16,092 nt of DNA, from positions 1-16,092 of IMG/VR virus record IMGVR_UViG_3300044856_000082; one strand, given 5' to 3'. The translations under genes and the position numbers were made by a program. Below the pieces are notes generated by a model that was given only the letters and a program-made list of their open reading frames with translations, had not been told where the DNA came from and ran no database searches. This document shows positions 1 to 16,092 of the stretch, piece after piece (the first letter of the stretch is position 1; each line of letters begins with the position of its first letter). Source of the DNA: a virus.

Positions 1-127
1 CGTTCGGGGTCGTCCGCTCTGCGGACTGCCAGTTGGTTATCTGTGTAACTTTAGTGCTCGTGCAGTAACGATCGGTTGTCCGCCGATGACCGCCGGAGGC
101 GGTAGCTCTCCGGGTAACGGACAAAGG
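1..127. repeat. Left inverted terminal repeat (127 bp)
   Basis: A block-by-block manual reverse complement of 1-127 equals 15966-16092 with no mismatch. Identity breaks at position 128 (g) versus 15965 (t). My hand count gives 76/127 G+C (about 60%). Confidence 0.97.
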
Positions 128-163
128 GTGTAGGGTTTATGTGTGTAGGATTAGTGATATAAA

Positions 164-187
164 TTTTCTAGAAATTTTTCTAGAAAA
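164..187. promoter_or_regulatory. Two tandem palindromic boxes (TTTCTAGAAA at 165-174, TTTTCTAGAAAA at 176-187) abutting the early promoter
   Basis: Both boxes are perfect palindromes read directly from the sequence. Their centres are 12 bp apart, and the second box ends 3 bp before the -35 hexamer. They could be operator or activator sites, or an A/T-rich UP element. Confidence 0.5.
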
Positions 188-190
188 GTA

Positions 191-220
191 TTGACATATT
201 TCTATAAAAAGTGGTATTGT
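191..220 (+). promoter_or_regulatory. Sigma-A-type early promoter P1
   Basis: TTGACA (191-196), an 18-nt spacer, then TGgTATTGT (TG at 212-213, -10 hexamer at 215-220). It faces the first ORFs and sits in AT-rich DNA just inside the left ITR. Confidence 0.7.
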
Positions 221-323
221 AATATCAGAAACAAGGAAAACCAATAATACAAAAAATAGAAAACGCATACTAATAATTACTATTGCTGTCCTATCGGCAG
301 TACGGGGAGAAAGAGAGATAATA

Positions 324-512
324 ATGACAGTAGAAGAAATTAAAACCGTATTAAATGAAAGATGCAATGAATCGTGGGATATGCTTAAAATAATGGAAAA
401 CTATTATGGACAATCTAGCATGCAAGCACAGAAAGCATTGACTAGATGGGTTGCTTTTGATGACTTATACAGAGAGGTGTATAAGGAAGAACCGCTTTAT
501 AGTTTTGATTAA
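324..512 (+). CDS. Hypothetical early protein (62 aa, acidic)
   Basis: First ORF downstream of P1, with a purine-rich leader GGGGAGAAAGAGAG upstream. I recognise no family. Confidence 0.5.
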   Translation: MTVEEIKTVLNERCNESWDMLKIMENYYGQSSMQAQKALTRWVAFDDLYREVYKEEPLYSFD

Positions 513-558
513 TATATCTGCTGTGCTATCGGCGTAACGGGCAGAAAGGAAATTTGCT

Positions 559-909
559 ATGAAAACTTTAGATTTAGAAAAACTGTATACCGTACCAGCG
601 AAAATGGAGGATATCCCTTTATATGTAAAACAGGAAGATATTGCCGGTAATATCCATATTTACGTGTATGACCATGCGTCTCTTACGAATGGCTACGTTA
701 AGAAGAATGCATTATGTGTACCAGTTCCGTACAAAGGAAATTTTGGTGTGGGTTTTACCGTAAACTTGCATAACAAAAATTCTACACGTTACGCTTTAAA
801 AGCGTACTATGTAGAAGTTTCTCACAGCGTTATTTGTTCCGCGAACGATATTTGTACGTTGTGCCCTCTGTATTCGGCAGATGGAACAAATGAGGATTGC
901 TTATATTAA
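559..909 (+). CDS. Hypothetical early protein (116 aa) with a C-terminal Cys cluster
   Basis: SD-like GAAAGGA lies 8 nt upstream of the ATG. The C-terminus reads CSANDICTLCPLYSADGTNEDC (C-x5-C-x2-C-x11-C), a possible metal-binding site. I recognise no family. Confidence 0.55.
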   Translation: MKTLDLEKLYTVPAKMEDIPLYVKQEDIAGNIHIYVYDHASLTNGYVKKNALCVPVPYKGNFGVGFTVNLHNKNSTRYALKAYYVEVSHSVICSANDICTLCPLYSADGTNEDCLY

Positions 910-921
910 GGAGGAATAGCA

Positions 922-1152
922 ATGAGAGTGAAAGACTTTATTTTAATGTATAGCGGTATGGATCGCATAGAAGTCGAAATTTACGCCATTGTTACGGTGT
1001 TTAATAAAAAGTATCGCGTATTAGTTAGAAATTTTGCTATTGATTGTACAAAAGCATATACTACAAAAAAAGAAAATTATTTGTCAGAAGAAGTAATAGG
1101 TTTCGATATTATTGCTGATAAATTGCGAATCTTTATAAGGGGGTGTGAATAA
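922..1152 (+). CDS. Hypothetical early protein (76 aa)
   Basis: Strong SD AAGGAGG (908-914) lies 7 nt upstream of the ATG. The stop overlaps the next start (TAATG). Confidence 0.6.
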   Translation: MRVKDFILMYSGMDRIEVEIYAIVTVFNKKYRVLVRNFAIDCTKAYTTKKENYLSEEVIGFDIIADKLRIFIRGCE

Positions 1153-1730
1153 TGCCGCAGTCAAAGGACTATAGCATCTACCAGGAACTCGATCTCTCCA
1201 TCGACCAGATCAAACGCGAATTGCCTAAAGTGGCACAAGCGGCAAATAGCCGCCTTGCCAAACTGGAAAAAATTCACGCGCGCGACCAATGGGCGTATGG
1301 ACGCGTAAAAGAATTTTTTGCTTCACAAGGGCGTGAAAAAAATCGTTTCTTGAAAGGCGTTAAGCGTTCGGATGCATCCATTCGGCAGGAATGGGACACC
1401 ATGGTTGCTTTTTTGAACGCACCAGAAACTACAGTAAGTGGTTATAAAATCGCAGAATTTCAGCGGAGGTTTGATAAATCTAAGAAAAAAATTAATGCGG
1501 TTGTAACAGAAGATAACTATAAAGACTTGTATCATTTTCTGTCATCAAATTTATACAGAAAGAATCTTCGTAAAGAACTTGCGTCCAATCAAATTATAGA
1601 TGACTTTGTAGAAAAAATAGACGATCCTAAACTTGATTATAAGGATATTAAAAAAGATTATCAATTGTATCTCGATGGTTATATAACAAAAGAGGAATTG
1701 TTTGCGAAAAAACGAATAAAATTAAAGTAG
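1152..1730 (+). CDS. Putative terminal (priming) protein; function assigned by position only
   Basis: A 192-aa, highly charged, K/R-rich and helical-looking ORF. It is translationally coupled to the previous ORF (TAATG) and lies immediately upstream of the protein-primed DNA polymerase, as gene 3 precedes gene 2 in phi29. I see no clear sequence similarity to the phi29 terminal protein. The ORF itself is solid; the functional call is weak. Confidence 0.45.
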   Translation: MPQSKDYSIYQELDLSIDQIKRELPKVAQAANSRLAKLEKIHARDQWAYGRVKEFFASQGREKNRFLKGVKRSDASIRQEWDTMVAFLNAPETTVSGYKIAEFQRRFDKSKKKINAVVTEDNYKDLYHFLSSNLYRKNLRKELASNQIIDDFVEKIDDPKLDYKDIKKDYQLYLDGYITKEELFAKKRIKLK

Positions 1731-1740
1731 TGGAAAAAAT

Positions 1741-3900
1741 ATGTATGAATTGGAAGTACCGATACAAGTAAATGGAACAGAAACTACAGCAATAGAAACC
1801 GTGTATTCATGTAATGATTTTCCATTTTCTGATTTCCAAACTTTGCGTGAATGCCGAAAACGCGGAAGAAAGAAAAAACCTGTAGTGTACTATGATGTGG
1901 AAATGTCGTTCGATATTGAAACAACTACGTTAGAAAAACTCGATTACGAACGCTATAACAAAACAGGTGAAAAAGTGGTAAAAGGTACAGCGTATCTGTA
2001 TCAATGGCAGTTCTGTTTGAAAGATACGGTATGCTTTGGTCGCACATGGAACGAGTTTCTTACATTCTGCGAAAAACTGCATTTGTATTTGAAAACTTCT
2101 GATACGAAACGTGCTGTCGTATACGTTCATAATTTATCGTATGAATTTCAGTTTATGAAAGATTTCATAGCATTTGACGAAATTTTTGCGCGGGATGCTC
2201 ATAAAGTAATGAAATGTTATGCGTATCAATATGGGATTGAGTTTCGATGTTCCTACTTTCTCAGTAACATGTCTCTTTTAAAATTCTGTGAAAATAGTGA
2301 GGGAGTGTCTCACTATAAACTTGTTGATACGTATGATTACAAAAAACTACGTACACCAACAACACCTCTCACGGACGTTGAACAGGGATATTGCTATAAT
2401 GATGTTCGCGGCTTGTGTGAATGCATCCGCGCCTTACGAAAAGAGGATAATCTAGCAGAAATCCCCCTTACCTCAACTGGCTACGTCCGCCGAGAATTCC
2501 GCCGTGCCATGCAGGCAGATAGAGGTTATTATCCGGGAGTATTTGCCGATCTGGCTTTGACGTTACCGCAGTACCAACTCTGCAAAGACGCGTTCCGAGG
2601 CGGCAACACGCACGCCAACCGCATCCACGCGGGGCACACGATCACCGCGAAAAAAGGGGAAAACGCAATCATAATGGGAAGCATGGATATTTCCAGTAGC
2701 TACCCCGCGCAGATAGCAATGGGTTACTATCCCATGAGTGCGTTTCGGGCGGTTGCGATTACATCGCAAGAACAGTTTGACAATTTGTGTGCTACACGTT
2801 GTGTTATCATGCGGGTACAATTTGACAACTTGCGTATAAAAGAAAATATCCCCATCCCGTATATCCCTTTGTCAAAGTGTCAGAAGCACGGGAAAGATTG
2901 TGTGATTGATAATGGACGCGTCTTGTCTATTGATTGCTGTGAAATAGCAATGACGGAAATTGACTTGTCGATCATAAAAAATCAATACGACTATGATTTC
3001 TTTACCGTCTCGGAGTGCTACGTAGCCGCGCGCGGAAAATTACCGGAAAGTATGCGTAAAACGATGATGTCATTTTTTATCGCAAAAAGCCAGTTGAAAG
3101 GAAATCCCGATAAAGTCTATGAATATATGAAATCTAAGAATAAACTAAACAGCACGTTCGGGATGTGTGTAACCGATCTTTTGCAGGACGAATGGGCAAT
3201 GGATGCTTTTACGGGAGAATGGCATCGGGAAAAAGCAGATGCGGAAAAAGCACTGAAAACGTACTATGATGGAAAAAACAGCTTTTTGCACTATCAATGG
3301 GGAATCTATGTTACCGCCCACGCAAGAAAGCAGTTACAAGATATGCTGGACGTGGTTGGAATGGATACCGTGTACTGCGACACCGATAGTATCAAGTTTT
3401 TACATCCGGAAGTACATCTACCAGAATTTGAAGACAAAAACAAATTACTTTCCAAACGTGCGATTGAAAACGATATTCCTGCTTTTTGCGATGTCGGCGA
3501 AAAACGCTACATTCTCGGCGTATGGGAACTGGATAATCTGTATGTTCAATTTAAAACCCTTGGGGCGAAAAAATATTGCGGCGTTGAATGGGATGAAAAA
3601 GCGGCAAAAACAGGTGCCGACCCTGTGCGCTTTACGTCTACGGTCGCCGGCATGAATAAGAAACTTGGAGCGGAAAACTTAAAGTGCTGTAATAATTTAC
3701 GTCTCCGCCGCCGGATGGAAAATGTCGGACGGACAATCAGTTGCTTTAACAACTCGAAACCCCATTACATCAAAGTCAACGGGGAAGAAATATTAACTGC
3801 AAGTAATATAGGAATCATTGATACCACTTATACCTTAGGTGTATCGAATGAATACTATGAAGTATTGGTAAACTCTCAAGACGGAGTGTTACCGGAATAG
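1741..3900 (+). CDS. Family-B DNA polymerase, protein-primed (phi29 gp2-like)
   Basis: All diagnostic motifs appear in the translation. They are ExoI FDIETTT, ExoII YVHNLSYEFQF, ExoIII YCYNDVRGL, motif A DISSSYPAQI (phi29 DVNSLYPAQM) and motif B KLNSTFGM (phi29 KLMLNSLYGKF). Motif C is VYCDTDSIKF (phi29 IYCDTDSIHL) and the KxY motif is GAKKY. Confidence 0.95.
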   Translation: MYELEVPIQVNGTETTAIETVYSCNDFPFSDFQTLRECRKRGRKKKPVVYYDVEMSFDIETTTLEKLDYERYNKTGEKVVKGTAYLYQWQFCLKDTVCFGRTWNEFLTFCEKLHLYLKTSDTKRAVVYVHNLSYEFQFMKDFIAFDEIFARDAHKVMKCYAYQYGIEFRCSYFLSNMSLLKFCENSEGVSHYKLVDTYDYKKLRTPTTPLTDVEQGYCYNDVRGLCECIRALRKEDNLAEIPLTSTGYVRREFRRAMQADRGYYPGVFADLALTLPQYQLCKDAFRGGNTHANRIHAGHTITAKKGENAIIMGSMDISSSYPAQIAMGYYPMSAFRAVAITSQEQFDNLCATRCVIMRVQFDNLRIKENIPIPYIPLSKCQKHGKDCVIDNGRVLSIDCCEIAMTEIDLSIIKNQYDYDFFTVSECYVAARGKLPESMRKTMMSFFIAKSQLKGNPDKVYEYMKSKNKLNSTFGMCVTDLLQDEWAMDAFTGEWHREKADAEKALKTYYDGKNSFLHYQWGIYVTAHARKQLQDMLDVVGMDTVYCDTDSIKFLHPEVHLPEFEDKNKLLSKRAIENDIPAFCDVGEKRYILGVWELDNLYVQFKTLGAKKYCGVEWDEKAAKTGADPVRFTSTVAGMNKKLGAENLKCCNNLRLRRRMENVGRTISCFNNSKPHYIKVNGEEILTASNIGIIDTTYTLGVSNEYYEVLVNSQDGVLPE

Positions 3901-3908
3901 GAGACGAT

Positions 3909-4031
3909 ATGAGATATTTTGTGTTTTTTATGTTTTTAGTATTATCAACGATCTGGGCGTTACATGAGGAAGAACTCGACCTTTCCATCCTGCTTTTATT
4001 TTTGGATATTTTCTTTATTTTCTTATTTTAA
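3909..4031 (+). CDS. Unlisted 40-aa hydrophobic small ORF (possible small membrane protein)
   Basis: Hand translation gives MRYFVFFMFLVLSTIWALHEEELDLSILLLFLDIFFIFLF followed by a stop. AGGAG (3899-3903) lies 5 nt upstream of the ATG and overlaps the polymerase stop codon. It is below the 60-aa cutoff of the ORF track. It has two hydrophobic stretches split by HEEELD. Confidence 0.4.
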   Translation: MRYFVFFMFLVLSTIWALHEEELDLSILLLFLDIFFIFLF

Positions 4032-4034
4032 CTA

Positions 4035-4063
4035 TTGACTTGTTTGGTAGGCAGTGCTATTAT
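4035..4063 (+). promoter_or_regulatory. Sigma-A-type promoter P2 (near consensus, extended -10)
   Basis: TTGACT (4035-4040), a 17-nt spacer, then TGcTATTAT (TG at 4055-4056, -10 hexamer at 4058-4063). A T-rich tract lies upstream. The layout matches P1. Confidence 0.75.
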
Positions 4064-4111
4064 ACTACTTGTAAGAACAAATAGCTACATAACGAAAGAA
4101 GAAAAAAAAAA

Positions 4112-4348
4112 ATGATTAGAACAAAAATCGAAACATTTATCTATTCTGTCATTGACAGAAACACGAAACAGGTGATCGGCTCTTTTGAGAGTACAGAAGA
4201 ACTGAAAGCGCAGAAAGCAAAAACCGACGCTGTTGCCGCCGCTGGTTTTCCGGAGGATTTCATCTGTGTACTAACCGATACCGTATCCGCCCGCTACGAG
4301 ATGCCGGACGAACAGTTCTTTGCCGAAGCAAAGAGACTGGACGATTAA
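4112..4348 (+). CDS. Hypothetical small acidic protein (78 aa)
   Basis: First ORF after P2, preceded by an A-rich leader (10 A before the ATG) instead of a clear SD. It lies next to the SSB-like gene, the position phi29 p6 occupies next to p5. That is a positional hint only. Confidence 0.5.
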   Translation: MIRTKIETFIYSVIDRNTKQVIGSFESTEELKAQKAKTDAVAAAGFPEDFICVLTDTVSARYEMPDEQFFAEAKRLDD

Positions 4349-4452
4349 TCAATGCACAACCTGCGGTCTGGAATCGTCCAGATAAGACGTAACCGATCAA
4401 AGCAACGCGCCGCAGTTCTGATAACAATTAAATCAAAAAGGAGAACGAAATC

Positions 4453-4872
4453 ATGAGCAAAGCTAAAATGAAATTAAACAACGTAACTGTTAAGTACGCA
4501 AAAGAGGAAGACGGAAAAAGTGTTCTTTCCGCGTCTATCTCTGCCGATCAGCAGAAAGCCATTTTTGAAAAAATCATCGAGGAGTTTGGGGAAGATGCCG
4601 CCGCAGAAGCGAAATGGATTCCTGCAAAGGAAACAACCGACGCTGATTTGTACGTGAAAGCACAGACCAATTACCGCGTTGACTTTTACGAGGACGGCGT
4701 AGAGAGCGACACCGTTTCCAGTGTTGACGAACTGGGAAAGGGAGCTGTCATTGACCTGTTCATTTCCATCGGAGAAAGCAAGTTCCGCCGCGACAAGGGA
4801 TTCACAGCTTACCTTTCTGCGGTAAACGTGCACAAATTCGGCGATACGGAAAAATTTAATCCGTTTGCTTAA
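4453..4872 (+). CDS. Putative single-stranded DNA-binding protein (DUF2815 / T7 gp2.5-like pattern)
   Basis: SD AAAGGAGA lies 8 nt upstream. The N-terminal KLNNVTVKYAK and C-terminal GAVIDLFISIGESKFRRDKGFTAYLSAVNVHKFGD resemble, from memory, the conserved ends of DUF2815-type phage SSBs. It sits in the replication module and is followed by a strong terminator. Confidence 0.45.
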   Translation: MSKAKMKLNNVTVKYAKEEDGKSVLSASISADQQKAIFEKIIEEFGEDAAAEAKWIPAKETTDADLYVKAQTNYRVDFYEDGVESDTVSSVDELGKGAVIDLFISIGESKFRRDKGFTAYLSAVNVHKFGDTEKFNPFA

Positions 4873-4913
4873 GTACCATGGTCTGGATACGCGCTCCGAC
4901 TGGTAAACGGTGA

Positions 4914-4948
4914 ATAGTTTATAGTTTATAGCTTATAGTTGATATCTT
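4914..4948. repeat. Five tandem 7-bp units: ATAGTTT ATAGTTT ATAGCTT ATAGTTG ATATCTT
   Basis: Read directly from the sequence. It lies in non-coding DNA between the SSB-like stop codon and the terminator. Confidence 0.9.
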
Positions 4949-4978
4949 GTGTGCGATAAAAAAAAACTCTATACGTGT

Positions 4979-5012
4979 AAAAGAGCTACGTTTTCCAGCG
5001 TAGCTCTTTTTT
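4979..5012 (+). terminator. Rho-independent terminator (bidirectional in appearance)
   Basis: AAAAGAGCTACG (4979-4990) pairs perfectly with CGTAGCTCTTTT (4999-5010) around the 8-nt loop TTTTCCAG. It ends in a run of 6 T, with an A-run on the 5' side. Confidence 0.85.
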
Positions 5013-5058
5013 ATACTCAGCGAATCTGCCATTCACCGCCGTCCATCCGCAGTCAAAA

Positions 5059-5120
5059 CGTGCGATCATCGTGCGATAAACGTGAGATTGTCTGCGGTTT
5101 TGCTGGCGGGGAACTGGCGG
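5059..5120. repeat. Helically phased direct repeats: CGTGCGAT / CGTGCGAT / CGTGAGAT (11-bp spacing) and CTGGCGG x2 (11-bp spacing)
   Basis: The first set is at 5059-5066, 5070-5077 and 5081-5088. The second set is at 5103-5109 and 5114-5120. GTGCGATAAA at 5071-5080 is identical to 4951-4960. Confidence 0.8.
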
Positions 5121-5127
5121 TTAACAT
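5100..5127 (+). promoter_or_regulatory. Candidate promoter P3 with a weak -35 (possibly factor-dependent)
   Basis: TTGCTG (5100-5105), a 16-nt spacer, then TAACAT (5122-5127). The -10 and its downstream sequence (TAACATGATTATGCGG) match promoter P4 (TAACATGAAAATACGG) at 13/16 positions. Phased repeats lie immediately upstream and over the -35. Confidence 0.45.
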
Positions 5128-5167
5128 GATTATGCGGAACGCGGTGCTGGGATGTGGAAAACGATAG

Positions 5168-5205
5168 AAAGGAGGATGTGAAACAAAAATGTTTCACGTG
5201 AAACA
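5168..5205 (+). promoter_or_regulatory. Unusual translation-initiation region of the ATPase gene (SD, hairpin or mini-ORF, then start)
   Basis: AAAGGAGGA lies at 5168-5176. GTGAAACA (5178-5185), AAAA, TGTTTCAC (5190-5197) form an 8-bp hairpin, followed by a third GTGAAACA (5198-5205) and the ATG at 5206. There is no SD within 30 nt of the start unless the hairpin folds. Confidence 0.5.
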
Positions 5206-6345
5206 ATGATTTTTTGGAACGATATTAAATGGGAAAAACTTTTCGCGGATTATCATGTAAAATTTGAAGGGGTAGATGATAAAGGAAATCCAATTCAGTA
5301 TTACAATCCAATCCGGTTGTTTTCCGAGCCAGACTTGGACGGTGATTTCGCTGGCGTGGCAATTACATGTTCCAACCGTAGCGCCGGAAAGACAAGTGCT
5401 TTTGCCGCGGCAAGCTGTATCTTGTGTAAAGAGTATGGCTTGCAGACAGGATGGATTTTCCGAACGAAAGGGGAGATGACGGGAGCGGCGGCAATGTACG
5501 AAGATATGCTAAGAATGTATCCTAAATTAGGAAGTGTGATTACCTATAAAAATCTGGACAAAAACGGAAATGTTGTGCGGTATTTTTTGGACGGTGTGCC
5601 ATTCGGATGCGCGTTTAGTTTTGGAAGTAAGATGGATAGTGTAAAAAAGCTGTCGCCGTATTTTCGGGATATCTACTTTTTGTTTTTTGATGAGTTTTCT
5701 ATGGAAAGTGGACAATACGTAAAAGGTGAATCTGAAAAACTGCAATCGTTATTATTGACGATCAGCCGTGGAAATGGAAGTCAGTCAAGATGGTTTAAAC
5801 TGATTATGGCATCCAATAATATTTCGTTGCTCAATCCCTATTTTGTATTTTTTGGTATACACAAGCGGTATCAGAAAGAAACCAAAATGATGCACGGAAG
5901 TGGTTTTGTATGTGAATTTACCCACAATGACAGCGCAAGTAAGGCGATGTGGGAAAACACCGCTTTGAAAGCTTTCCGCTGCGGTCACTATATGCAAAGC
6001 ATGAGCGTAGGCGATCAGATGTTGATTGATGATGCTGTATTTGTTCAGAAGCCGACCGGACGGTCGCGGTATCTGTTTACCATCGAACACAGCGGAAAAA
6101 GCTATGGAGTGTATGAATATTATGAAGAGGGGTTCATCTATATCACGCACAACTATAACCCGTCTTGTAATTTTGTCGCGGTATTTCGGGACGGGGATCA
6201 CACGCAAAACACGGTTATGTTGGAACACTACGATTATTTATTCGAAAATCTGGTTGACGCGTACCGGAAAGCCTATTTGCGATTTGACGATCTCGACAGC
6301 AAAAATATGGCGGTTGAGTTGCTGGGGATTGACCTTTATAAATAG
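5206..6345 (+). CDS. DNA encapsidation (packaging) ATPase, phi29 gp16-like
   Basis: Walker A is CSNRSAGKTS. Walker B and its surroundings read FLFFDEFSME...LIMASNNISLLNPYFVFFG (phi29 IVFDEFIRE...CLSNAVSVVNPYFLFFN). The C-terminal AYRKAYLRFDDL...AVELLG matches phi29 AFMNGYLRFDNQ...AYELF. Confidence 0.92.
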   Translation: MIFWNDIKWEKLFADYHVKFEGVDDKGNPIQYYNPIRLFSEPDLDGDFAGVAITCSNRSAGKTSAFAAASCILCKEYGLQTGWIFRTKGEMTGAAAMYEDMLRMYPKLGSVITYKNLDKNGNVVRYFLDGVPFGCAFSFGSKMDSVKKLSPYFRDIYFLFFDEFSMESGQYVKGESEKLQSLLLTISRGNGSQSRWFKLIMASNNISLLNPYFVFFGIHKRYQKETKMMHGSGFVCEFTHNDSASKAMWENTALKAFRCGHYMQSMSVGDQMLIDDAVFVQKPTGRSRYLFTIEHSGKSYGVYEYYEEGFIYITHNYNPSCNFVAVFRDGDHTQNTVMLEHYDYLFENLVDAYRKAYLRFDDLDSKNMAVELLGIDLYK

Positions 6346-6367
6346 TTGTGCGGAACGGACAAAGTAC

Positions 6368-6396
6368 TTGACAGACGGACAGAAAAGAAGTAACAT
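6368..6396 (+). promoter_or_regulatory. Promoter P4 for the lysis and structural (late) gene block
   Basis: TTGACA (6368-6373), a 17-nt spacer, then TAACAT (6391-6396). It lies in the 165-nt gap after the ATPase gene. Confidence 0.7.
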
Positions 6397-6402
6397 GAAA
6401 AT

Positions 6403-6510
6403 ACGGGGAAACCTTTTAAAAGGGGTTGCCACGGTTGAGTAAACCGCCCTGTCCTTGGCAGGTCAAAAGGTTTCCTTGTTTCCAATGGACAGGAAGAAAG
6501 GAGCAAAGAG
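6403..6510 (+). promoter_or_regulatory. Structured leader of about 105 nt for the late operon
   Basis: A 12-bp perfect palindrome CCTTTTAAAAGG lies at 6412-6423. CCTGTCCTTGG (6448-6458) pairs with CCAATGGACAGG (6482-6493), giving 11 bp with one bulged T. That stem encloses a small AAGG/CCTT hairpin and ends 3 nt before the SD AAAGGAG (6497-6503). Confidence 0.45.
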
Positions 6511-6801
6511 ATGGCAAGTATCGTTTTTAATATGATTGTAGGAATGATGAAAAAAGAAAATGCTTATCTTGCTTATACGGTCCGCTATAAAGGGGACGAA
6601 AAAGACACGTTGATCATTGTCCCGCATGAAAATTACGAGTCTCACATCCGGTATTTGTGGGATTTCTTTTTTATGGATGGCAACGCGTACAACAGTAAAT
6701 CGCCAGTCCGCTTCATTCATAATTTTATTATGTGTGATAAATTAAGTGAAATTGATGACTGGTTAAAATGGCAGGATAAGGAGGTGGACGGATGGATGTG
6801 A
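6511..6801 (+). CDS. Hypothetical protein (96 aa), first gene of the late block
   Basis: Good SD AAAGGAG lies 7 nt upstream. The stop overlaps the next gene. I recognise no family. Confidence 0.6.
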   Translation: MASIVFNMIVGMMKKENAYLAYTVRYKGDEKDTLIIVPHENYESHIRYLWDFFFMDGNAYNSKSPVRFIHNFIMCDKLSEIDDWLKWQDKEVDGWM

Positions 6802-7019
6802 CAGTAGTCCAGTCAATCACGCAGATGGTTGGAACACTCGGTTTCCCGATTGTATGTTGTGGCGCACTTTTTTGGGATCGAATCAAAGCAGAAGAACGCC
6901 GAGCAAAAGAAGCGGAATTACATCGGCAGGAAGTAGCAGAATTGCAGAAAGCAATCGAATCAAATACACTTGCTATTACCGCTTTATGCCAGCATTTAGG
7001 AGGTGGAAAGAATGAGTAA
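6792..7019 (+). CDS. Putative holin (YvrJ / BhlA-UviB-like single-pass membrane protein)
   Basis: SD AAGGAGG lies 7 nt upstream. The N-terminal hydrophobic segment MVGTLGFPIVCCGALFW is followed by a charged coiled-coil tail (RIKAEERRAKEAELHRQEVAELQKAIE). The G-x-x-GFPIV pattern matches my memory of YvrJ-family proteins. The gene lies directly upstream of, and overlaps, the endolysin gene. Confidence 0.55.
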   Translation: MDVTVVQSITQMVGTLGFPIVCCGALFWDRIKAEERRAKEAELHRQEVAELQKAIESNTLAITALCQHLGGGKNE

Positions 7020-8752: not shown

Positions 8753-8753
8753 T

Positions 8754-9101
8754 ATGACACTTGAAGAGTATTGGACAGAAATTGTAGCCGACATTGGAAA
8801 CATCGAAACACACGGTGATGCTATCGCCGCCATCAGCGAAAAAATCAAAACAGAAGATACCGACATTGGAGCACTGATGTCTGAGCGTGACGCACTGGTT
8901 GCGGAACGGGACGAACTGAAAGGAAAGTATGATGATGCAGTTGCCGAAATCAAAAGCCGATGGTCTGATCTTTCTCACGGAGGAAGTGTCACAAAAGTAA
9001 CAGAGTTTGGAGCAAAAAACGCGCCTACCCCGCCCGACACAGCATATAGTGTTGATGATCTTGATATGTCTCAGCTTATTTTAAGCGGAAAAGGAGAGTG
9101 A
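8754..9101 (+). CDS. Putative scaffolding protein (phi29 gp7-like by position and composition)
   Basis: A 115-aa acidic protein rich in coiled-coil sequence (ALMSERDALVAERDELKGKYDDAVAEIK). It lies immediately upstream of the capsid gene and has a strong AGGAGG SD. Confidence 0.6.
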   Translation: MTLEEYWTEIVADIGNIETHGDAIAAISEKIKTEDTDIGALMSERDALVAERDELKGKYDDAVAEIKSRWSDLSHGGSVTKVTEFGAKNAPTPPDTAYSVDDLDMSQLILSGKGE

Positions 9102-9105
9102 AACA

Positions 9106-10416
9106 ATGGCAGAAAAACTTGATATGACCAATATTAATATGCTGAACGCCGTGCGTCCGACCATGAGTGTTGTCTATCGTGACAGAGTACCAGTTGCAAC
9201 GAAAGATAATATTGCCGATATTGCGAAAACATTAACCGACCCTTACAATCCGATGGCAAGAAACGAACTAGTTCCTGCGCTGGTGAATCTGATTGCCAGT
9301 CAGTCGATCAGCACGGAAGCGTTTAGAAATCCTCTGCGTGTGCTGAACAGTAACGCCATGCCGTACGGAAACGGAGAACAGGAAGTTTACGTAAACTTTG
9401 CACAGGGTTATGCGCACGATGCGAATATCAGCATCGAAGATGCGACCGCCATTTATGACAGCTATATCATGGCACTGTACCATGTAATCAATTTCAACAA
9501 CGACTATCCGGTTACCATCTGGTTTGAAGATATGCGCGGCGCGTTTCTAGATGAATACGGACTTCGAAGTCTGGTACAGGCAAAAGTGGAGAGCGTTGTT
9601 TCCGCTTGCAACTGGGATGAGTTCACAACCGCGAAAGAACTGATTGCATCTGCAAAACGTGCGGGACAGATTTACCCGGTTCATGTTGACCCGGTGACAG
9701 ATCCGGCATCCGCGAACGCACTGGCAAAGCAAATTCAGTCCTATATTGACAAAATTCAGTTCCCGAACCCGCTGTACAATTTCGCAGGCGCGACCTCTGC
9801 CGCAAAAGAAGATACCATTCTTCTGTTTGTCGACCCGGACACAAAAGCGGCAATGAACGTTGACAGTTATGCCAGCGCTTACAATCTCGACCGCATGATT
9901 CCGAAAGCACAGCAGGTGTTAATCGACAACTTTAACGATGCAGAGGGTATTGTGGCGGTTCTGGTTGACAAGCGGTTCTTCAAAATCCGTGAACAGTACC
10001 GTATGATGGTACAAGATAATGTAAACCGGGGTCTGAGATGGAACAGCACGTACGCGGTAAAAGAGATGTTCTCATACTCTCTGTTTTATCCGGTCATCGT
10101 GTTCACGACCGAAACGGTTCTTGTTTCTTCCATTAATGCAAGTGACGTTGGACTGGTGAAAGCCGGAACAGATGTTGACTTCGGAGGAAGTTTTTCGGTT
10201 ACTTCTACTGGCGTAGCCGATAAAGCGATTGACGTAAAAGTAGTAGGTAACTCTTCCACTGATACGTTTGTTATTCCGGGAACAACCATTCTTAGAATCG
10301 CAAAAGATGAGAAGAATCTGAAACCGACAGAAAACAAAACAAAAAGTGTGTGTGTTGTGATTACAAGCCGATTCGACTCTTCCAAAACGGCAACGATTTA
10401 CTTTACGACCGATTAA
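9106..10416 (+). CDS. Major capsid protein (phi29 gp8-like) with a C-terminal Ig-like domain
   Basis: [27 protein letters not shown] matches phi29 [39 protein letters not shown]...NRGLRWN matches phi29 GLEAVLVDKDWF...PRGLYWN. The last approximately 100 aa are beta-rich and Ig-like, like the gp8 BIG2 domain. Confidence 0.9.
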   Translation: [436 protein letters not shown]

Positions 10417-10432
10417 GTAAGAGGGTGGAAAC

Positions 10433-11998
10433 ATGGATAATTTCATTCCGATGCCGCAGCAGACCGATGTGGAGGCAGTTTCCCCGCAGACCACGGTTAT
10501 TTTAGCAAGCGGGATTGAATGGGGAAACGATTATGAACACGTAAGATACTACGAAAACGGAAAAACAGGTTGTCTGGCACACGTAAGAGAAAAAGCAATC
10601 CATATTTTCCAGCAGTCCGCGCCCGTGAGATGGGGAGAATTGACGTATAAGGGAAAAGGAAATGAGAGTGAGTTTTTGAAATGCAATTACATTGCGTTTC
10701 AAAACAAGCCGTATACGGAAGAGTGGTATTTCGGCTTTGTGACGCGCGTAGAATGGTTGAGTGACGGAAGTTTCAAGATTTATTTCGAACCCGATCGGTT
10801 TCAAAATAGTTTTTATGATGTCGTGTTACAGCCGTGCTACGTAGAGCGCGAACATATTGCAAAAGCAGAGGATGCAGTAGGAGCGAATCTTGTACCAGAA
10901 AATCTGGAAACTGGGGAATACATTGTAAATAGTTCCGCTGGTATGGGTTTCGGAATGATGAACTATTGTCTTGTTGCCAGTGCAGACAAAAACGGCGTCG
11001 CTTTGGAACCAGAATTAAATCAGAAAATCATGTCCGGTTTGACTTATTTTAACACAACTGATTTTTCCGCTATGAAACAAAAAATACAGGATTATGCAAC
11101 AAGCGGAAATGCTGATGCTATTGTAGCTATTTTTCAAGCGCCGCAGTTGTGTTTCGAAAATTCCCCTAAGGAATTTCCAATGCTTTTTCCAAAAACACTG
11201 GCAGGATATACACCAAAAAATAAAAAATTATTCCAGTATCCTTTTTCGTATCTGCTAGTAGATGCACATGACGGTAGTCAATATATGTATCGTCTTGAAT
11301 ACTTTAAAGATCAAAAAATTTCTTTTTATGGACAGGGAGTAAAGTTAAACATTCCGTCTATTTATATCAGTCCGAAAAATTACAAAAACGAACCTACTAC
11401 TAACACACCGTATGGTTTCGTGTACAGTAATTTCCCGTCATGCGCGTGGACTAATGACGCTTATCAAGCGTGGCTTGCGCAGTCACAGCCTATCTGGGAC
11501 TACCAGACAAAACAGCAGTATATCGATACCGGAAAAAGTGTTATCTCAACCATTGCAAATGTCTTGAGTGGTAATTTTGGAAAAGCAGTTGAAAGCAGTA
11601 TCGGGCAGACTGTAAGCAATTTTATGTTTGGCGAAAATATTTCGGCGCAGATGGAACAGCACGATTTAATTCCGCCAACCGCAAAGGGAAGTGCTACAGG
11701 AAGTTATATTCAGACAGCGCTTTTTAGCAATACCATTGCACTAAAGACGATGTGTGTAACGCCGGAAATGGCGAAAGTAATTGACGATTATTTCACTATG
11801 TATGGTTATGCGACGCATAGAATCAAAGTGCCGAATATCACCGGGCGCGCAAACTGGAATTTTGTAAAAACGGTAAATTGCGGATTGCATGGCGCGTGCG
11901 TTACCGATGATATCAATTTTTTGCAGGCTATGTTTAATCGCGGCGTTACGTTCTGGCATACGGACGATGTTGGAAACTATGGTCTTTCCAATGATTAA
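10433..11998 (+). CDS. Tail knob / distal tube protein (phi29 gp9-like)
   Basis: YIAFQNKPYTEEWYFGFVTRVEW...YVEREHI matches phi29 YIMFQNADYGNKWFYAFVTELEF...IVREHV. The C-terminal YGYATHRIKVPNITGRANWNFVKT...GVTFWHTDDVGNY matches phi29 [24 protein letters not shown]...GITLWHTDNIGNY. Confidence 0.92.
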   Translation: MDNFIPMPQQTDVEAVSPQTTVILASGIEWGNDYEHVRYYENGKTGCLAHVREKAIHIFQQSAPVRWGELTYKGKGNESEFLKCNYIAFQNKPYTEEWYFGFVTRVEWLSDGSFKIYFEPDRFQNSFYDVVLQPCYVEREHIAKAEDAVGANLVPENLETGEYIVNSSAGMGFGMMNYCLVASADKNGVALEPELNQKIMSGLTYFNTTDFSAMKQKIQDYATSGNADAIVAIFQAPQLCFENSPKEFPMLFPKTLAGYTPKNKKLFQYPFSYLLVDAHDGSQYMYRLEYFKDQKISFYGQGVKLNIPSIYISPKNYKNEPTTNTPYGFVYSNFPSCAWTNDAYQAWLAQSQPIWDYQTKQQYIDTGKSVISTIANVLSGNFGKAVESSIGQTVSNFMFGENISAQMEQHDLIPPTAKGSATGSYIQTALFSNTIALKTMCVTPEMAKVIDDYFTMYGYATHRIKVPNITGRANWNFVKTVNCGLHGACVTDDINFLQAMFNRGVTFWHTDDVGNYGLSND

Positions 11999-12010
11999 GG
12001 AGGTGATAAT

Positions 12011-12970
12011 ATGTATGCTAACCCGTATCGGGTGAGTAACAAGGAAGTGTGGGGACACTGGGAAAACAATCCGAATACGTCACCGGAAGAAAAAATGTAT
12101 TTCCGGCACTTCTTTGACAAGTTTGTAAATCTGGCGTTATCTCGTTATGAGTATGACGGTTTACCGGATGAGATTCCGCCACGGATGATCAACTCTTATC
12201 TGTTATGGCAAGGAATGTGCCTGTTTAAAAAAGAGCCAATCACCGGACTTTTCGGCGTTTTTGGTGTTAATCTGGTAGGTGAGCCGGATATTTACGGTAT
12301 TCCTACTGATTGGATTGCGTATGCCATGAATGGACAGTATTATGAACAGACAGATAAGGAAGAAAGCGCACTGATTTTCGCCAGACCTTTTGCCGTGCCG
12401 GAAATTCTAAGCATTTTTCTGCATTCGCAGAGTCTTGCGGAGAAAAAAGCGTCAACAAGGGTAAACGTCATTCAGCAAAGGACGCCTGTAGTAATCAGTG
12501 GAGATTCTACACAGAAACTAAGTATTGACAATTTTATTCAAAAATGGGTAAAAAATATTCCGTTCATCAAAGCGAAAAACGATCTGCGAAAACAGATTCA
12601 AATTGATACCATTGACTTAAAAGTACAGCCGATTTTTAACGAACTTGACACCGCCGCACAGAGAGAAGTAGCAGAATGTCTGGCTGATCTCGGAATCGAA
12701 GCAAGTGGAGTTGAAAAACCGGAACGGCTGGTTTCCGCAGAAACGAGTTACAACGACGGAGAGATTGAGTTGACAAGAAACGGAAATCTGGCAACCATTC
12801 AGAGAGGACTTGACGCGATCAATGAAATGTATGGTTTGAATATCCATGTACGTTTTAACTCTAAAATGGTAACGCCGATTAACCGACCTGATGTATTTGA
12901 CACGACACATAACGAAAACGACACACCGGAAAACCACGAACAGAACACTACAGAAAGTGAGGTGGAATAA
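12011..12970 (+). CDS. Head-tail connector / portal (upper collar, phi29 gp10-like)
   Basis: ERLVSAETSYNDGEIE...AINEMYGLNIHVRFN matches phi29 ERMVTDEVSSNDEQIE...KINELYGLNVKVKFR. The size (319 aa versus 309) and the position after the knob gene also fit. Confidence 0.92.
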   Translation: MYANPYRVSNKEVWGHWENNPNTSPEEKMYFRHFFDKFVNLALSRYEYDGLPDEIPPRMINSYLLWQGMCLFKKEPITGLFGVFGVNLVGEPDIYGIPTDWIAYAMNGQYYEQTDKEESALIFARPFAVPEILSIFLHSQSLAEKKASTRVNVIQQRTPVVISGDSTQKLSIDNFIQKWVKNIPFIKAKNDLRKQIQIDTIDLKVQPIFNELDTAAQREVAECLADLGIEASGVEKPERLVSAETSYNDGEIELTRNGNLATIQRGLDAINEMYGLNIHVRFNSKMVTPINRPDVFDTTHNENDTPENHEQNTTESEVE

Positions 12971-13728
12971 TGTTTATTAGTTATAACTACGAAACGAAAA
13001 CATTGACAAATACCATTGAACAGTTGGTCATTTCCGATCATGTGATTTCCCCTCTTAAAAATCAGACCATTGATAATATGATTGAAGCAGCTGTGCCTTT
13101 AATCTTCAATTTTGACTTTCCTTTTTATGTCGATGCATCCGCCACAGAATATGCAACCGCAAAACTTGCGTTCGAAAAAACGTTCTGTTTACAGTATTTT
13201 CGGGAACAGATTGGACTGGAAACGATCGGAGAATTTCAGTATCATCTGAAAAGGATTCTAACACTCAATATGCCGTACTATGAACAGTTGTACCGGAGTA
13301 TTACTTTTGAGTATAACCCACTGATTACTCATAAGAGTACGCGAAAAGTAACAAGTACAAAAGACGATACACGAACTGGTGTGATCTCGGGAGACAGCAC
13401 AGCAAAAAACACAACGTCAACTGATACAAACAACGACACACAAAATATTCACTCGGACAATCCGCAGATTAATTTTGCGGGAAAGAATTACGCGTCTACT
13501 ATGGATCGGGGACAGAATACGATTCATAATAGCGCTGTGAGCAATGGAGAAAATACCACAAAAACGAACAGCAATGACACGTATCATGCAGATAACAATG
13601 ATATGATTGAAGCTGAAGGATTTAACGGAAGTTATTCGTTAGAAGTGCAGAGATTCCGCGATACCATCCTTAATCTTAACAAGCGTATCTGCGATGATTG
13701 CAGAGAATTGTTCTATCAATTTTATTAA
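12970..13728 (+). CDS. Lower collar protein (phi29 gp11-like)
   Basis: The start overlaps the portal stop (TAATG). Its 252 aa compare with about 290 in phi29. The FREQIGLETIGEFQYHLKRILTLNMPYYEQLY segment fits my recollection of the conserved gp11 core. The position is syntenic. Confidence 0.7.
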   Translation: MFISYNYETKTLTNTIEQLVISDHVISPLKNQTIDNMIEAAVPLIFNFDFPFYVDASATEYATAKLAFEKTFCLQYFREQIGLETIGEFQYHLKRILTLNMPYYEQLYRSITFEYNPLITHKSTRKVTSTKDDTRTGVISGDSTAKNTTSTDTNNDTQNIHSDNPQINFAGKNYASTMDRGQNTIHNSAVSNGENTTKTNSNDTYHADNNDMIEAEGFNGSYSLEVQRFRDTILNLNKRICDDCRELFYQFY

Positions 13729-13740
13729 GGAGGTATAACA

Positions 13741-15888
13741 ATGGCAGATAAACCAACGATTCCAGATTTTCCTACTTTGCCAGATTTCGGCAAGATAATT
13801 ACACAGGCTTGTGAGGTTGTAGCAAGTGTACGGGGGATTCCGTATGATTTCAATGGAACGCTGAGTCTGGAAAACAAATTTGTTGTACTGTTTAAGACAG
13901 TGAAAGAGATGTTTGACGCACAGGATGAACTTGTAAAAAGTTATAAAACGTTATATGATTTTATAAATCAGTTTTTTGATAATCTCGATTTACAGGCGGA
14001 AGTCAACAAGAAAATCGAAGAAATGAAAAACAGCGGAGAACTTCTGAATTTGTTGAAACCAACGGTAAACAACGAAATAACAGCATGGCTGACAGCTAAT
14101 ATCACGAATCCATCCAATCCACCGATTGATAAATCGTTGACTGTAGAAAATGCCGCTGCGGATGCAAAAGTGACGGGTGATAAAATTAATCTACTAAAGG
14201 AAGATTTATGTAATGCTTATAAAGGCGGTAGATTATTAAACGTGCGAGAGATAGTTTCATCCGAGTCTTTTAACGATTTTGAAAATATAGGAAGCATCCC
14301 AGTGCCAGAAAACAAATATTCGTATGAATTGAACGGAACTTCTATCGCGTGGACTGAAAGTGATTCATATTTGACTTATTCATTCGAAAAAGGAGATAAG
14401 GGTATTGTCAATTTTGGAAACATAAGCAATATATCAGAATTTATGTTCTTAGTCATTTTTGAATATGTCGGAACTACCTATCATATCTTAAAAAAAGACA
14501 GCAATTTATTTAAAGATAGCAACAAACCAACGGATTATTTAACACTTAATGGAACAAGATACAGATATATTTCAAATGGCGTTTTAGAATTTGAAGTAAC
14601 CGATGAAAACTGTAAACTTCATGTTACATTAAAAAAAGCTAATTTCGTTGATGGAACTGGATATGTTATTGGTGAAGAAAAAAAGATATATCCAAAATGG
14701 CTAATGAGAAGTAAAGATAGAATTTTCATCGCTTCTAATGAAGCTTCAGAAGAAGAAAAAATATATGCTGATTATGTGTGTGACGGTGTTAATGATGAAG
14801 TAGAGATTCAAAAAGCTATTGATTATTTAAACAAAGTAGGTGGAGGCTGTATAAAATTATCAGCTGGAAGATTCTTTCTACAGAATTTTACGTTATGTGA
14901 AGATGGTGTATATAGATGCCTAACAATTCCACAATCAAACGTAACTATTGAAATTGAGGGTGTAGGTTTCGGATTCTGGGAAAAAACAGGAAGCTACGAT
15001 AAAATAGTAGGAACAATACTGTATCTTTCGACTATTGCATATAACCAAATTACAAATGACAGGAAATACGAAATTATATCCGCACCAAATATAGAATATT
15101 CAAGACTAGGACTAAGACTAAAAAAGATAGGAATTAGAATTCCAAATAATCAAAAACCAATTATTTGCATAAACCTATTCAATGTCGGTAGACCGTATTT
15201 AGAATCTGTAATGCTTCATGGTTATGGGTTGGACAATGGCGGAATACCGCCAAAAGCGGTAGACGGATGTATTGGAATTAGAATGACTAACGGTTGGAAT
15301 CACGGCACAGAATGCATGTATAAAATGTGTGGCGCTAATGGATTTTATGAAGCGTTCCAAATTGGCGGTGAACACGTAATTATGTTAGATTGCTCAGGAA
15401 TATTTAATGTGTATTCATACACTTTCGGAAATTATGAATGTACTTATGGTGCGTTCTTGCATCCAATTACAATGATAAATTGCTGTGATGAACGTGGTGT
15501 AAATATGCCTTTATTCGTTAAAGCCGGTGTTAAATATAATGGTGTATATACCAAAGGAAAACAAAATATTAATATTATAGATTTTAACCTTGAACGTGGT
15601 GTAACAGAAAATATCCCCGGCGGTGTTGAAGGTAATGATGCAATAGTTATGGATGATGAATGTTTCGCCGGGACAATAACGTATACTAAGAAAATAGGTG
15701 TAAATGCAATCGGAAGTGATAGCACTTTTTTCCAAAAAGGAGGTAAGAATTTTAAAATCAGAAATGTTGCACAGCCATTATATGGAACAACAGAAGTCAG
15801 AAATTCTTTAGGTGCTAATAATGGACAAGAGTTTTTTGATACAGATTTAGGAAAAATGATGTACTTTTTCGAGGGGAGATGGATGTAA
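13741..15888 (+). CDS. Tail appendage / tailspike (phi29 gp12 position) with a right-handed beta-helix depolymerase-like domain
   Basis: It has a strong AAGGAGG SD. The N-terminal anchor region carries the fibre-type motif LTVENAAADAKVTGDKI. The central DGVNDEVEIQKAIDYLNKVGGGCIKLSAGRFFL is a typical pectate-lyase-like beta-helix cap. The C-terminus reads FFDTDLGKMMYFFEGRWM, a common tailspike C-terminal motif. Confidence 0.8.
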   Translation: MADKPTIPDFPTLPDFGKIITQACEVVASVRGIPYDFNGTLSLENKFVVLFKTVKEMFDAQDELVKSYKTLYDFINQFFDNLDLQAEVNKKIEEMKNSGELLNLLKPTVNNEITAWLTANITNPSNPPIDKSLTVENAAADAKVTGDKINLLKEDLCNAYKGGRLLNVREIVSSESFNDFENIGSIPVPENKYSYELNGTSIAWTESDSYLTYSFEKGDKGIVNFGNISNISEFMFLVIFEYVGTTYHILKKDSNLFKDSNKPTDYLTLNGTRYRYISNGVLEFEVTDENCKLHVTLKKANFVDGTGYVIGEEKKIYPKWLMRSKDRIFIASNEASEEEKIYADYVCDGVNDEVEIQKAIDYLNKVGGGCIKLSAGRFFLQNFTLCEDGVYRCLTIPQSNVTIEIEGVGFGFWEKTGSYDKIVGTILYLSTIAYNQITNDRKYEIISAPNIEYSRLGLRLKKIGIRIPNNQKPIICINLFNVGRPYLESVMLHGYGLDNGGIPPKAVDGCIGIRMTNGWNHGTECMYKMCGANGFYEAFQIGGEHVIMLDCSGIFNVYSYTFGNYECTYGAFLHPITMINCCDERGVNMPLFVKAGVKYNGVYTKGKQNINIIDFNLERGVTENIPGGVEGNDAIVMDDECFAGTITYTKKIGVNAIGSDSTFFQKGGKNFKIRNVAQPLYGTTEVRNSLGANNGQEFFDTDLGKMMYFFEGRWM

Positions 15889-15905
15889 CATAAATTTTTA
15901 ATGTT

Positions 15906-15948
15906 GTTAATTAAAGCAGACTTTAATTAACTAAGTAACAAAAGTTAC
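15906..15948 (+). terminator. Two consecutive hairpins after the last gene (putative end-of-operon structure with no U-tract)
   Basis: GTTAATTAAAG (15906-15916), loop CAGA, CTTTAATTAAC (15921-15931) form a perfect 11-bp stem. GTAAC AAAA GTTAC follows at 15935-15948. No T-run follows either hairpin, so terminator function is uncertain. Confidence 0.4.
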
Positions 15949-15965
15949 ACATATATCTACTTCTT

Positions 15966-16092
15966 CCTTTGTCCGTTACCCGGAGAGCTACCGCCTCCGG
16001 CGGTCATCGGCGGACAACCGATCGTTACTGCACGAGCACTAAAGTTACACAGATAACCAACTGGCAGTCCGCAGAGCGGACGACCCCGAACG
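15966..16092. repeat. Right inverted terminal repeat (127 bp)
   Basis: Exact reverse complement of 1-127, ending at the last base of the window. Confidence 0.97.

Follow-up and report, generated by a model that had tools for sequence, protein, structure and literature searches.

The stretch of DNA analysed here, referred to below as the window, comprises the 16,092 nucleotides (nt) of IMG/VR virus record IMGVR_UViG_3300044856_000082. All of its plausible genes lie on the plus strand, from 324 to 15888, and among them are a phi29-type family B DNA polymerase (PolB), a gp16-like packaging ATPase and a phi29-type virion module, with an inverted terminal repeat (ITR) at either side (Table 1). Its assignment to the phi29-like protein-primed podophages (the former Picovirinae sensu lato: Salasmaviridae, Madridviridae, Guelinviridae, Rountreeviridae and unclassified relatives) is well supported. 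The window very probably represents an almost complete genome of a phi29-like gut phage that was truncated at the k-mer length (k) of the assembler, with some 450-525 bp missing at each end, the true ends included.

The perfect 127-bp inverted repeat that the earlier note had described at the window ends was confirmed, positions 1-127 being the exact reverse complement of 15966-16092; an exact inverted match of 127 nt in 16 kb cannot arise by chance. A repeat finder extended it to 147 nt at 95% identity, and beyond position 127 the identity drops (139 of 147 positions, then 161 of 200, with 12 matches in the 20 positions just past 127). The repeat has a G+C content of 60% vs 41% in the remaining window. 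Its GTCCGC-N3-GCGGAC palindrome has two matches in the window against 0.06 expected by chance, and sites of the broader GTCCG-N5-7-CGGAC family number 3-6 per ITR in full-length relatives and 0-1 in the rest of the genome. The first 36 nt of the window's ITR had no exact match in IMG/VR.

The first relatives of the phage were obtained by an exact-protein look-up with the first small open reading frame (ORF), and capsid protein searches added approximately 130 contigs, nearly all from human gut metagenomes, with capsid proteins mostly 92-97% identical to that of the window. In exact look-ups for contigs of the same strain, the tail spike, collar, connector and TP candidate (terminal protein, see below) had no entry, and relatives were reached through the first small ORF only. 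Some related contigs carry sequence beyond the left end of the window: 220 nt more in L001 and 489 nt more in L004. Window positions 1-127 align to approximately positions 450-650 of the ITRs in relatives L046, L014, L004 and L111, and the relatives' ITRs go on outward for 450-525 bp beyond the window's end, up to a common terminus, 5'-AAACATATATA. Overall, the lineage has ITRs of 0.42-0.82 kb at its physical ends, of which the window holds the inner 127 bp only.

The anatomy of the complete ITR was taken from the relatives and is given here in coordinates of L039. The outer core of approximately 415 bp hardly varies, whether between members of the lineage or between the two ends. It starts with an AT-rich tip, AAACATATATA, with two GTCCG-N7-CGGAC palindromes in the first 61 nt. 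Next come a GC hairpin with runs of A and T on its flanks (~78-112), an AT-rich stretch, an inward-facing promoter-like site that is invariant (TTGACA-17-TAAAGT, 193-221) and more palindromes at ~343-437. RNAalifold predicted 43 pairs in the core, none of them with a compensatory change. A 76-aa ORF in the core (163-393), the sole ORF of any size there, was rejected as a candidate gene: a run of extra A's in the alignment of L045 should shift its frame. The inner part of the ITR, variable and GC-rich, contains tandem units of 119-163 bp in 0-3 copies, and every unit includes a palindrome together with a TATNTGTGTAA motif and a CCGCCGGAGGCGG hairpin. The tandem array is visible in L001 (1-325) and L086 (398-812), with two to three copies in some relatives, and the spread of ITR length from 420 to 816 bp is explained by the varying copy number of the inner units. 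The 127 bp of the window correspond to about one such unit.

Since among the relatives the inner ITR varies more than any other part of the genome, and copy number of its units makes ITR length range over ~420-816 bp, the outer ITR of this particular strain might be shorter or different, for example devoid of the 415-bp core, so that just a few tens of bases would be missing. This is improbable: the core is present, and 85-96% conserved, at all 96 related ends that reach it, and the first bases of the window match the junction ...GCCTGCCCGTTCGGGGTCGTCCGC... which leads to the core in L031 and L054.

An important question is why the window ends exactly where it does. Terminal inverted repeats were found in 29 related contigs, and in 14 of them the repeat was exactly 55, 77, 99 or 127 nt long (55 in nine contigs, 77 in two, 99 in two and 127 in one, L119), lengths that are k values of SPAdes. 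The ends of these k-length contigs are scattered at differing places inside the ITR; each of the 10 contigs whose repeats measure 377-816 bp starts at most 5 nt from 5'-AAACATATATA(C/T)AGTCCGTCCCACGCGGACA. Protein encoded by the window is recorded from a Joint Genome Institute (JGI) contig of 16,092 bp, and the JGI workflow runs metaSPAdes at k = 33, 55, 77, 99 and 127. A de Bruijn graph was simulated from seven full-length relatives, and the unitig through the genome centre was inspected. In four of the seven genomes it carried a terminal exact inverted repeat equal to k at every k from 33 to 127, and a fifth genome did so for k = 55-127; the other two gave no terminal inverted repeat at any k. 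With L086 at k = 127, the simulation returned a contig of 16,192 bp that bore a 127-bp repeat. The contig stops on one and the same vertex at both sides because the repeat's innermost k-mer can be followed by either of the two unique flanks. For the window, the assembler would have collapsed the two ITR copies into one graph node, and the contig spanning the unique region would have stopped exactly k = 127 bases into the repeat on either side. Moreover, the tandem inner array is a second reason for short-read assemblies to break there. The biological edge of the window's repeat is its inner boundary only (127/128 and 15965/15966), and the outer edge lies exactly 127 bases outward of it.

These results bear on the claim of the earlier note that the contig runs from terminus to terminus with a 127-bp ITR ending in 5'-CGTTCGGGG, which has very little likelihood left. 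The exact inverted repeat does coincide with the contig ends, and related phages do have ITRs of 100-600 bp, but 127 is the assembler's k, and the artefact turns up again in the relatives, at 55, 77 and 99, and in the simulation. Every relative that extends past the window continues outward to the common AAA end. In addition, the window's own end begins with CGTT and lacks the terminal base reiteration needed for sliding-back, whereas the phi29-like termini described so far start with reiterated bases, AAA or in one group AA (PMC6266182). The "whole protein-primed phage genome" of that note therefore survives as to the type of phage, not as to completeness and ITR length. An ITR completeness criterion in use asks for an identical terminal inverted repeat of at least 20 nt (PMC9610469). 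The window has such a repeat, yet the repeat does not mark the physical ends, because its length equals k and the relatives continue for 450-525 bp. The window is probably coding-complete, since the missing part seems to hold no conserved ORF, but it is not terminus to terminus; by homology with close relatives, the full genome is expected to be about 17 kb, the relatives with full ends measuring 16.4-17.6 kb.

The common AAA end behaves as a physical terminus. Among 96 contig ends matching the ITR core, 20 end precisely on the AAA, another 12 fall 1-4 nt short of it, 55 are cut further inside and seven have 7-43 extra bases, which in two cases are Nextera adapter; passage through the AAA terminus into phage DNA was seen in none of the 96. 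When IMG/VR was scanned for the terminal motif, it gave 34 matches, every one at most 53 nt from the end of its contig; 17 of these break off on one identical base. The true termini of the relatives read AAACATATATA, AAATATATATA or AAAGATATATA, and the 5'-AAA end is the reiterated terminus required for sliding-back. Several ITR pairs are imperfect: L028 has 97.1% identity over 558 bp, L039 98.6% over 623 bp, L046 98.6% over 429 bp and L090 93.5% over 414 bp. A fold-back chimera is thereby excluded, as both ends were assembled independently and differ slightly, and there is no sign of circular, concatemeric or hairpin junctions, as no contig passes the AAA end. The artefacts that the earlier note had named as fatal to its view, a fold-back or junctions running through the ends, thus did not materialise in the relatives' contigs, and the lineage's ITR is real.

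Exact end repeats of k length are typical assembler products, and Gulyaeva et al. (PMC9610469) point out that metagenomic ITR calls can be artefacts, but it is hardly credible that the inverted repeat is wholly a fold-back product of a circular, concatemeric or hairpin-ended genome, given that both junctions between unique sequence and ITR are present in dozens of independent assemblies, that several ITRs are imperfect, each end having been assembled separately, that no contig crosses the AAA terminus into phage sequence or folds back, and that a phi29-type PolB and a phi29 gp16-type ATPase are encoded.

Two further observations were made on the contig ends. The Nextera adapter is fused, untrimmed, to the phage terminal region at ends of the public contigs L069, L113 and L128. 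In L019 (1-12) and at the right end of L090, the AAA terminus is preceded by an identical stretch of 12 extra bases, ATCACAATCGTT, which is not a fold-back of the terminal sequence.

The polymerase fits the same type of phage. A protein-primed PolB had been proposed in the earlier note, and the 719-aa protein proved phi29-type both by profile and by AlphaFold2 model. Pfam gave no match on the window PolB itself, and homologues at 45-52% identity have PF03175. In the Protein Data Bank (PDB), the PolB family profile matched only phi29 DNA polymerase (E 1.2e-9). The model (predicted local distance difference test score, pLDDT, 88.6) was matched by Foldseek to phi29 DNA polymerase, 2ex3_A, with E 1e-27 and a template modelling (TM) score of 0.76, the next polymerase class following at E 3e-9; entry 2ex3 is the phi29 polymerase-terminal-protein complex. 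Identity with the phi29 enzyme is approximately 16% in the structural alignment. The window PolB is ~145 aa longer than that of phi29, and the model has a beta-rich N-terminal extension of ~50 residues. In length, it is near the 722-aa PolB of Lactococcus phage asccphi28 and the 727-aa polymerases of Clostridium perfringens podophages (PMC3362512).

The 192-aa product of the gene directly upstream of PolB is a candidate terminal protein (TP), by position only. Its AlphaFold2 model has a pLDDT of 90, and its 93 remote homologues share invariant N32, F87 and S145. It is homologous to a 312-aa protein upstream of the PolB of Clostridium phage HM2 (hhalign E 1e-54). That HM2 protein (L138 1150-2088) shows, by hhalign, an apparent partial internal duplication of a domain which is single in the window protein, and several remote homologues of ~280-310 aa have two matched stretches. 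No significant match to a known TP was found in Pfam, PHROG, a PDB profile search or Foldseek searches of PDB and BFVD, and the protein resembled no Pfam or PHROG family and no solved structure of any other kind. TPs are considered too divergent for similarity tests of this sort (PMC11476376).

Several points weigh against reading the window as a protein-primed phage genome truncated at k. The best relatives are just 78-88% identical to it inside the ITR and a contig of the same strain was not found, so that the missing length and sequence of this strain are extrapolated. The assembler and its k were deduced from the label of the source and from the workflow as published, the record itself not being the source of either. 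Long ITRs that are 100% identical could each be one collapsed copy placed twice, which makes their exact lengths less certain than those of the imperfect ITRs. Lastly, the TP candidate has no similarity to the TPs of phi29, Cp-1 and asccphi28 (compared by hhalign for the latter two).

Table 1. Features of the 16,092-nt window.
Feature	Position	Strand	Basis or remark
Left ITR copy, innermost 127 bp only	1..127		outer edge is an assembly break
Palindrome GTCCGC-TCT-GCGGAC and its mirror	12..26; 16067-16081		GTCCG-N5-7-CGGAC family
Degenerate ITR continuation with TATGTGTGTAG motif	128..148		inverted-repeat scan, motif positions
Two TTCTAGAA palindromes, operator-like, then early-promoter-like site	166..220	+	sequence, promoter scan
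Three small early ORFs	324-512; 559-909; 922-1152	+	also predicted as genes in related contigs
Candidate terminal protein, 192 aa, all-helical	1152..1730	+	position directly upstream of PolB
phi29-type family B DNA polymerase (PolB), 719 aa	1741..3900	+	phrog_1907, profile, model
Small ORFs	3909-4031; 4112-4348; 4453-4872	+	possibly DNA-binding replication proteins, by position
Intrinsic terminator hairpin closing the early (replication) block	4977..5016	+	fold and covariation
gp16-like DNA packaging ATPase	5206..6345	+	PF05894, E 7.6e-27; phrog_2150
Promoter-like site TTGACA-17-TAACAT, ahead of lysis and structural genes	6368..6396	+	promoter scan
ORF without assigned function	6511-6801	+	ORF list
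Holin	6792-7019	+	family searches
Endolysin, NlpC/P60-like and SH3 domains	7003-7707	+	family searches
Tail-associated lysozyme	7700-8752	+	family searches
115-aa ORF in putative scaffold position	from 8754	+	position
phi29-type major capsid protein	9106-10416	+	PF25622, E 3.8e-64; phrog_2006
Tail knob, gp9-like	10433-11998	+	family search (block 10433-13728: PF20934, PF05352; phrog_2248, phrog_2038)
Connector/upper collar, gp10-like	12011-12970	+	family search (block 10433-13728)
Lower collar/adaptor	12970-13728	+	family search (block 10433-13728: also phrog_3225, phrog_5472)
Tail spike or appendage protein, 715 aa	13741..15888	+	weak matches to phrog_11699, phrog_20900
AT-rich hairpin between last gene and right ITR	15895..15942		inverted repeat I20
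Mirror of 128..148 with TATATGTGTAA	15945-15965		third motif copy within the ITR at 38-48
Right copy of the same ITR fragment	15966..16092		exact inverted match

The phi29-like morphogenesis module named in the earlier note is recognised by PF25622, PF05352, PF20934, PF05894, phrog_3225 and phrog_5472; the ATPase, capsid, connector, collar and tail knob proteins are all phi29-like by family matches. The three early ORFs had no match in Pfam or PHROG, and no significant family was found in the same databases for the small ORFs between PolB and the early terminator. The 715-aa tail protein had no sequence match in PDB.

Transcription appears to be unidirectional, starting from a promoter just inside the left repeat. 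The early-promoter-like site (191-220) reads TTGACA-18-TATTGT with an upstream TG and is conserved in the relatives. Directly upstream of it, at 166-186, TTCTAGAA palindromes occur as AAATTTTCTAG repeated with a period of 11, and these are also kept in the relatives; the tandem palindromes look like an operator. The early block is closed by the terminator hairpin, whose pair 11/37 shows compensatory changes between GC and AU in 10 of 51 relatives, with further compensatory pairs. Within these 51 relatives, covariation upstream of the ATPase gene is limited to this hairpin. At the other end of the map, the AT-rich hairpin after the last gene is possibly a bidirectional terminator.

Between the early terminator and the ATPase gene there is a highly conserved non-coding block (5030-5125). 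Direct repeats occur in it (CGTGCGAT, CGTGCGAT and CGTGAGAT), and folding of the single sequence gave z = -2.7; across the 51 relatives, covariation is weak, one pair having three compensatory vs six broken cases. The block might bind a regulator of a late promoter, or else form a structured leader. Prohead RNA (pRNA), a mark of Salasmaviridae sensu stricto (the phi29 group), was looked for with Rfam, and neither the window nor any of four full-length relatives gave a pRNA match at E<=1. With no Rfam match and no convincing covariation, a pRNA or other structured RNA was rejected as unsupported, which does not disprove it; a divergent pRNA is possible.

Another conserved element of 34 nt (5174-5207) reaches up to and across the ATPase start codon and reads GTGAAACA-AAAA-TGTTTCACGTGAAACA. 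The TGTTTCACGTGAAACA part is a 16-bp perfect palindrome, and the whole element is almost invariant in the 51 relatives. An exact 34-nt match was found in the intergenic region of bajarodino virus 3, an unrelated 6.2-kb inovirus from rodent faeces, which has an extra half-site near its copy. The element may be a site for a shared host regulator or a translational operator.

In many relatives, a GTCCG-N7-CGGAC palindrome precedes the promoter-like site after the ATPase gene (L086 7220-7236), and a degenerate form of it, GTGCGGAACGGACA, is present in the window within 6346-6400. Sharing of the palindrome between the ITRs and this promoter suggests that one DNA-binding protein acts at both. It is doubtful whether the two-part ITR forms a functional module in which the palindromes serve as iteron-like sites for a phage DNA-binding protein, coupling origin activation to transcription, and in which the ITR promoter drives a two-copy non-coding RNA, possibly in place of the missing pRNA. 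Such a module would comprise the near-invariant core with its tip palindromes, hairpin and promoter-like site, and the adjoining 119-163-bp units, each with a TATGTGTGTAA motif and a GTCCG-N-CGGAC palindrome; the coupling is proposed because the same palindrome adjoins the promoter after the ATPase gene in the relatives.

The closest cultured phage by PolB is Clostridium phage HM2 (LT600745.1, 17,470 bp, unclassified Caudoviricetes), with 44% amino acid identity over 99% of the length. As in the window, a single strand of HM2 encodes all the genes, and their order is shared: the TP-like protein comes first, and PolB, ATPase, capsid, tail knob, connector, collar and tail proteins follow. Its ITR is also long (~170 bp at 98.8%), although shorter than that of the lineage and unrelated to it in sequence. 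HM2 differs in G+C content (29% vs 41%) and in its longer upstream protein with the partly duplicated domain, and there is no nucleotide similarity between HM2 and the window. A near-identical cultured phage was absent from the collection searched.

Asccphi28 (NC_010363, 18,762 bp) has an ITR of 577 bp, annotated with a terminator close to its tip and with internal promoters, a layout resembling the hairpin with its T-run and the inward-facing promoter-like site in the full ITR of the relatives. Its 167-aa TP is encoded directly upstream of PolB, as is the window's candidate. Unlike in the window, the structural genes of asccphi28 are on the opposite strand; it infects a different host group and was absent among the top matches listed for the PolB and capsid searches. 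Streptococcus phage Cp-1 (NC_001825, 19,343 bp) has a shorter and unrelated ITR of 236 bp with promoters. It resembles the window in having the TP gene directly upstream of PolB and nearly all genes on one strand, and differs in that three right-end genes are on the other strand. Replication of Cp-1 is protein-primed, with sliding-back on the 3'-TTT end.

Bacillus phage phi29 (Salasvirus) shares with the window the PolB fold, matched over its full length, and the families of gp16, capsid, gp9, gp10 and collar proteins. The phi29 TP gene is also adjacent to PolB on its upstream side, a positional parallel to the gene at 1152-1730, and the phi29 terminus begins 5'-AAA (PMC6266182; PMC11476376). 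In contrast to the window, phi29 has a 6-bp ITR, a pRNA gene, divergent early genes at both ends and late genes on the other strand, and protein identity between the two is low. The podophages of C. perfringens have 18-kb genomes with ITRs of 25-30 bp (PMC3362512). A survey of clusters of human-gut metagenome-assembled genomes lists ctF653, with 15,970 bp and 41.3% G+C (PMC11476376), which may belong to this lineage. The combination of a long ITR with a phi29-like module in a genome below 19 kb, which the earlier note had pointed out, already exists in Cp-1, asccphi28 and HM2. Capsid identity to any isolate is at most 28%, which makes the lineage a distinct uncultured group within a known kind of phage. 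As to the host, the capsid search and a terminal-motif search of bacterial genome contigs gave no match.

The lineage combines a linear genome with long ITRs and a common 5'-AAA terminus, a phi29-type PolB and a phi29-type packaging and virion module. In the complete genome of the window's phage, ITRs of roughly 0.45-0.8 kb are expected: GC-rich repeat units would follow outward from the window ends, then the ~415-bp core and finally 5'-AAACATATATA. By analogy with phi29 and Cp-1, the TP would be covalently linked to each 5' end, and PolB would initiate replication at both ends, where TP-dAMP would be formed with an internal T of the 3'-TTT end as template and sliding back would follow; replication would then proceed by strand displacement. 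Likewise by analogy, the gp16-like ATPase would package unit-length TP-DNA through the gp10-like connector.

Overall, an exact terminal inverted repeat with a length equal to an assembler k (55, 77, 99 or 127) is no proof of completeness. About half of the ITR-bearing public contigs of this lineage are truncated in this way, and yet they would pass an ITR test of at least 20 nt. Biologically, the window's phage is an ordinary phi29-like phage. Its lineage is common in human gut metagenomes (more than 130 contigs) and is without a close cultured relative, and the true ends (5'-AAACATATATA) together with the ITR layout would be useful for recovering, cloning and rebooting these phages or for using their polymerase/TP pair.

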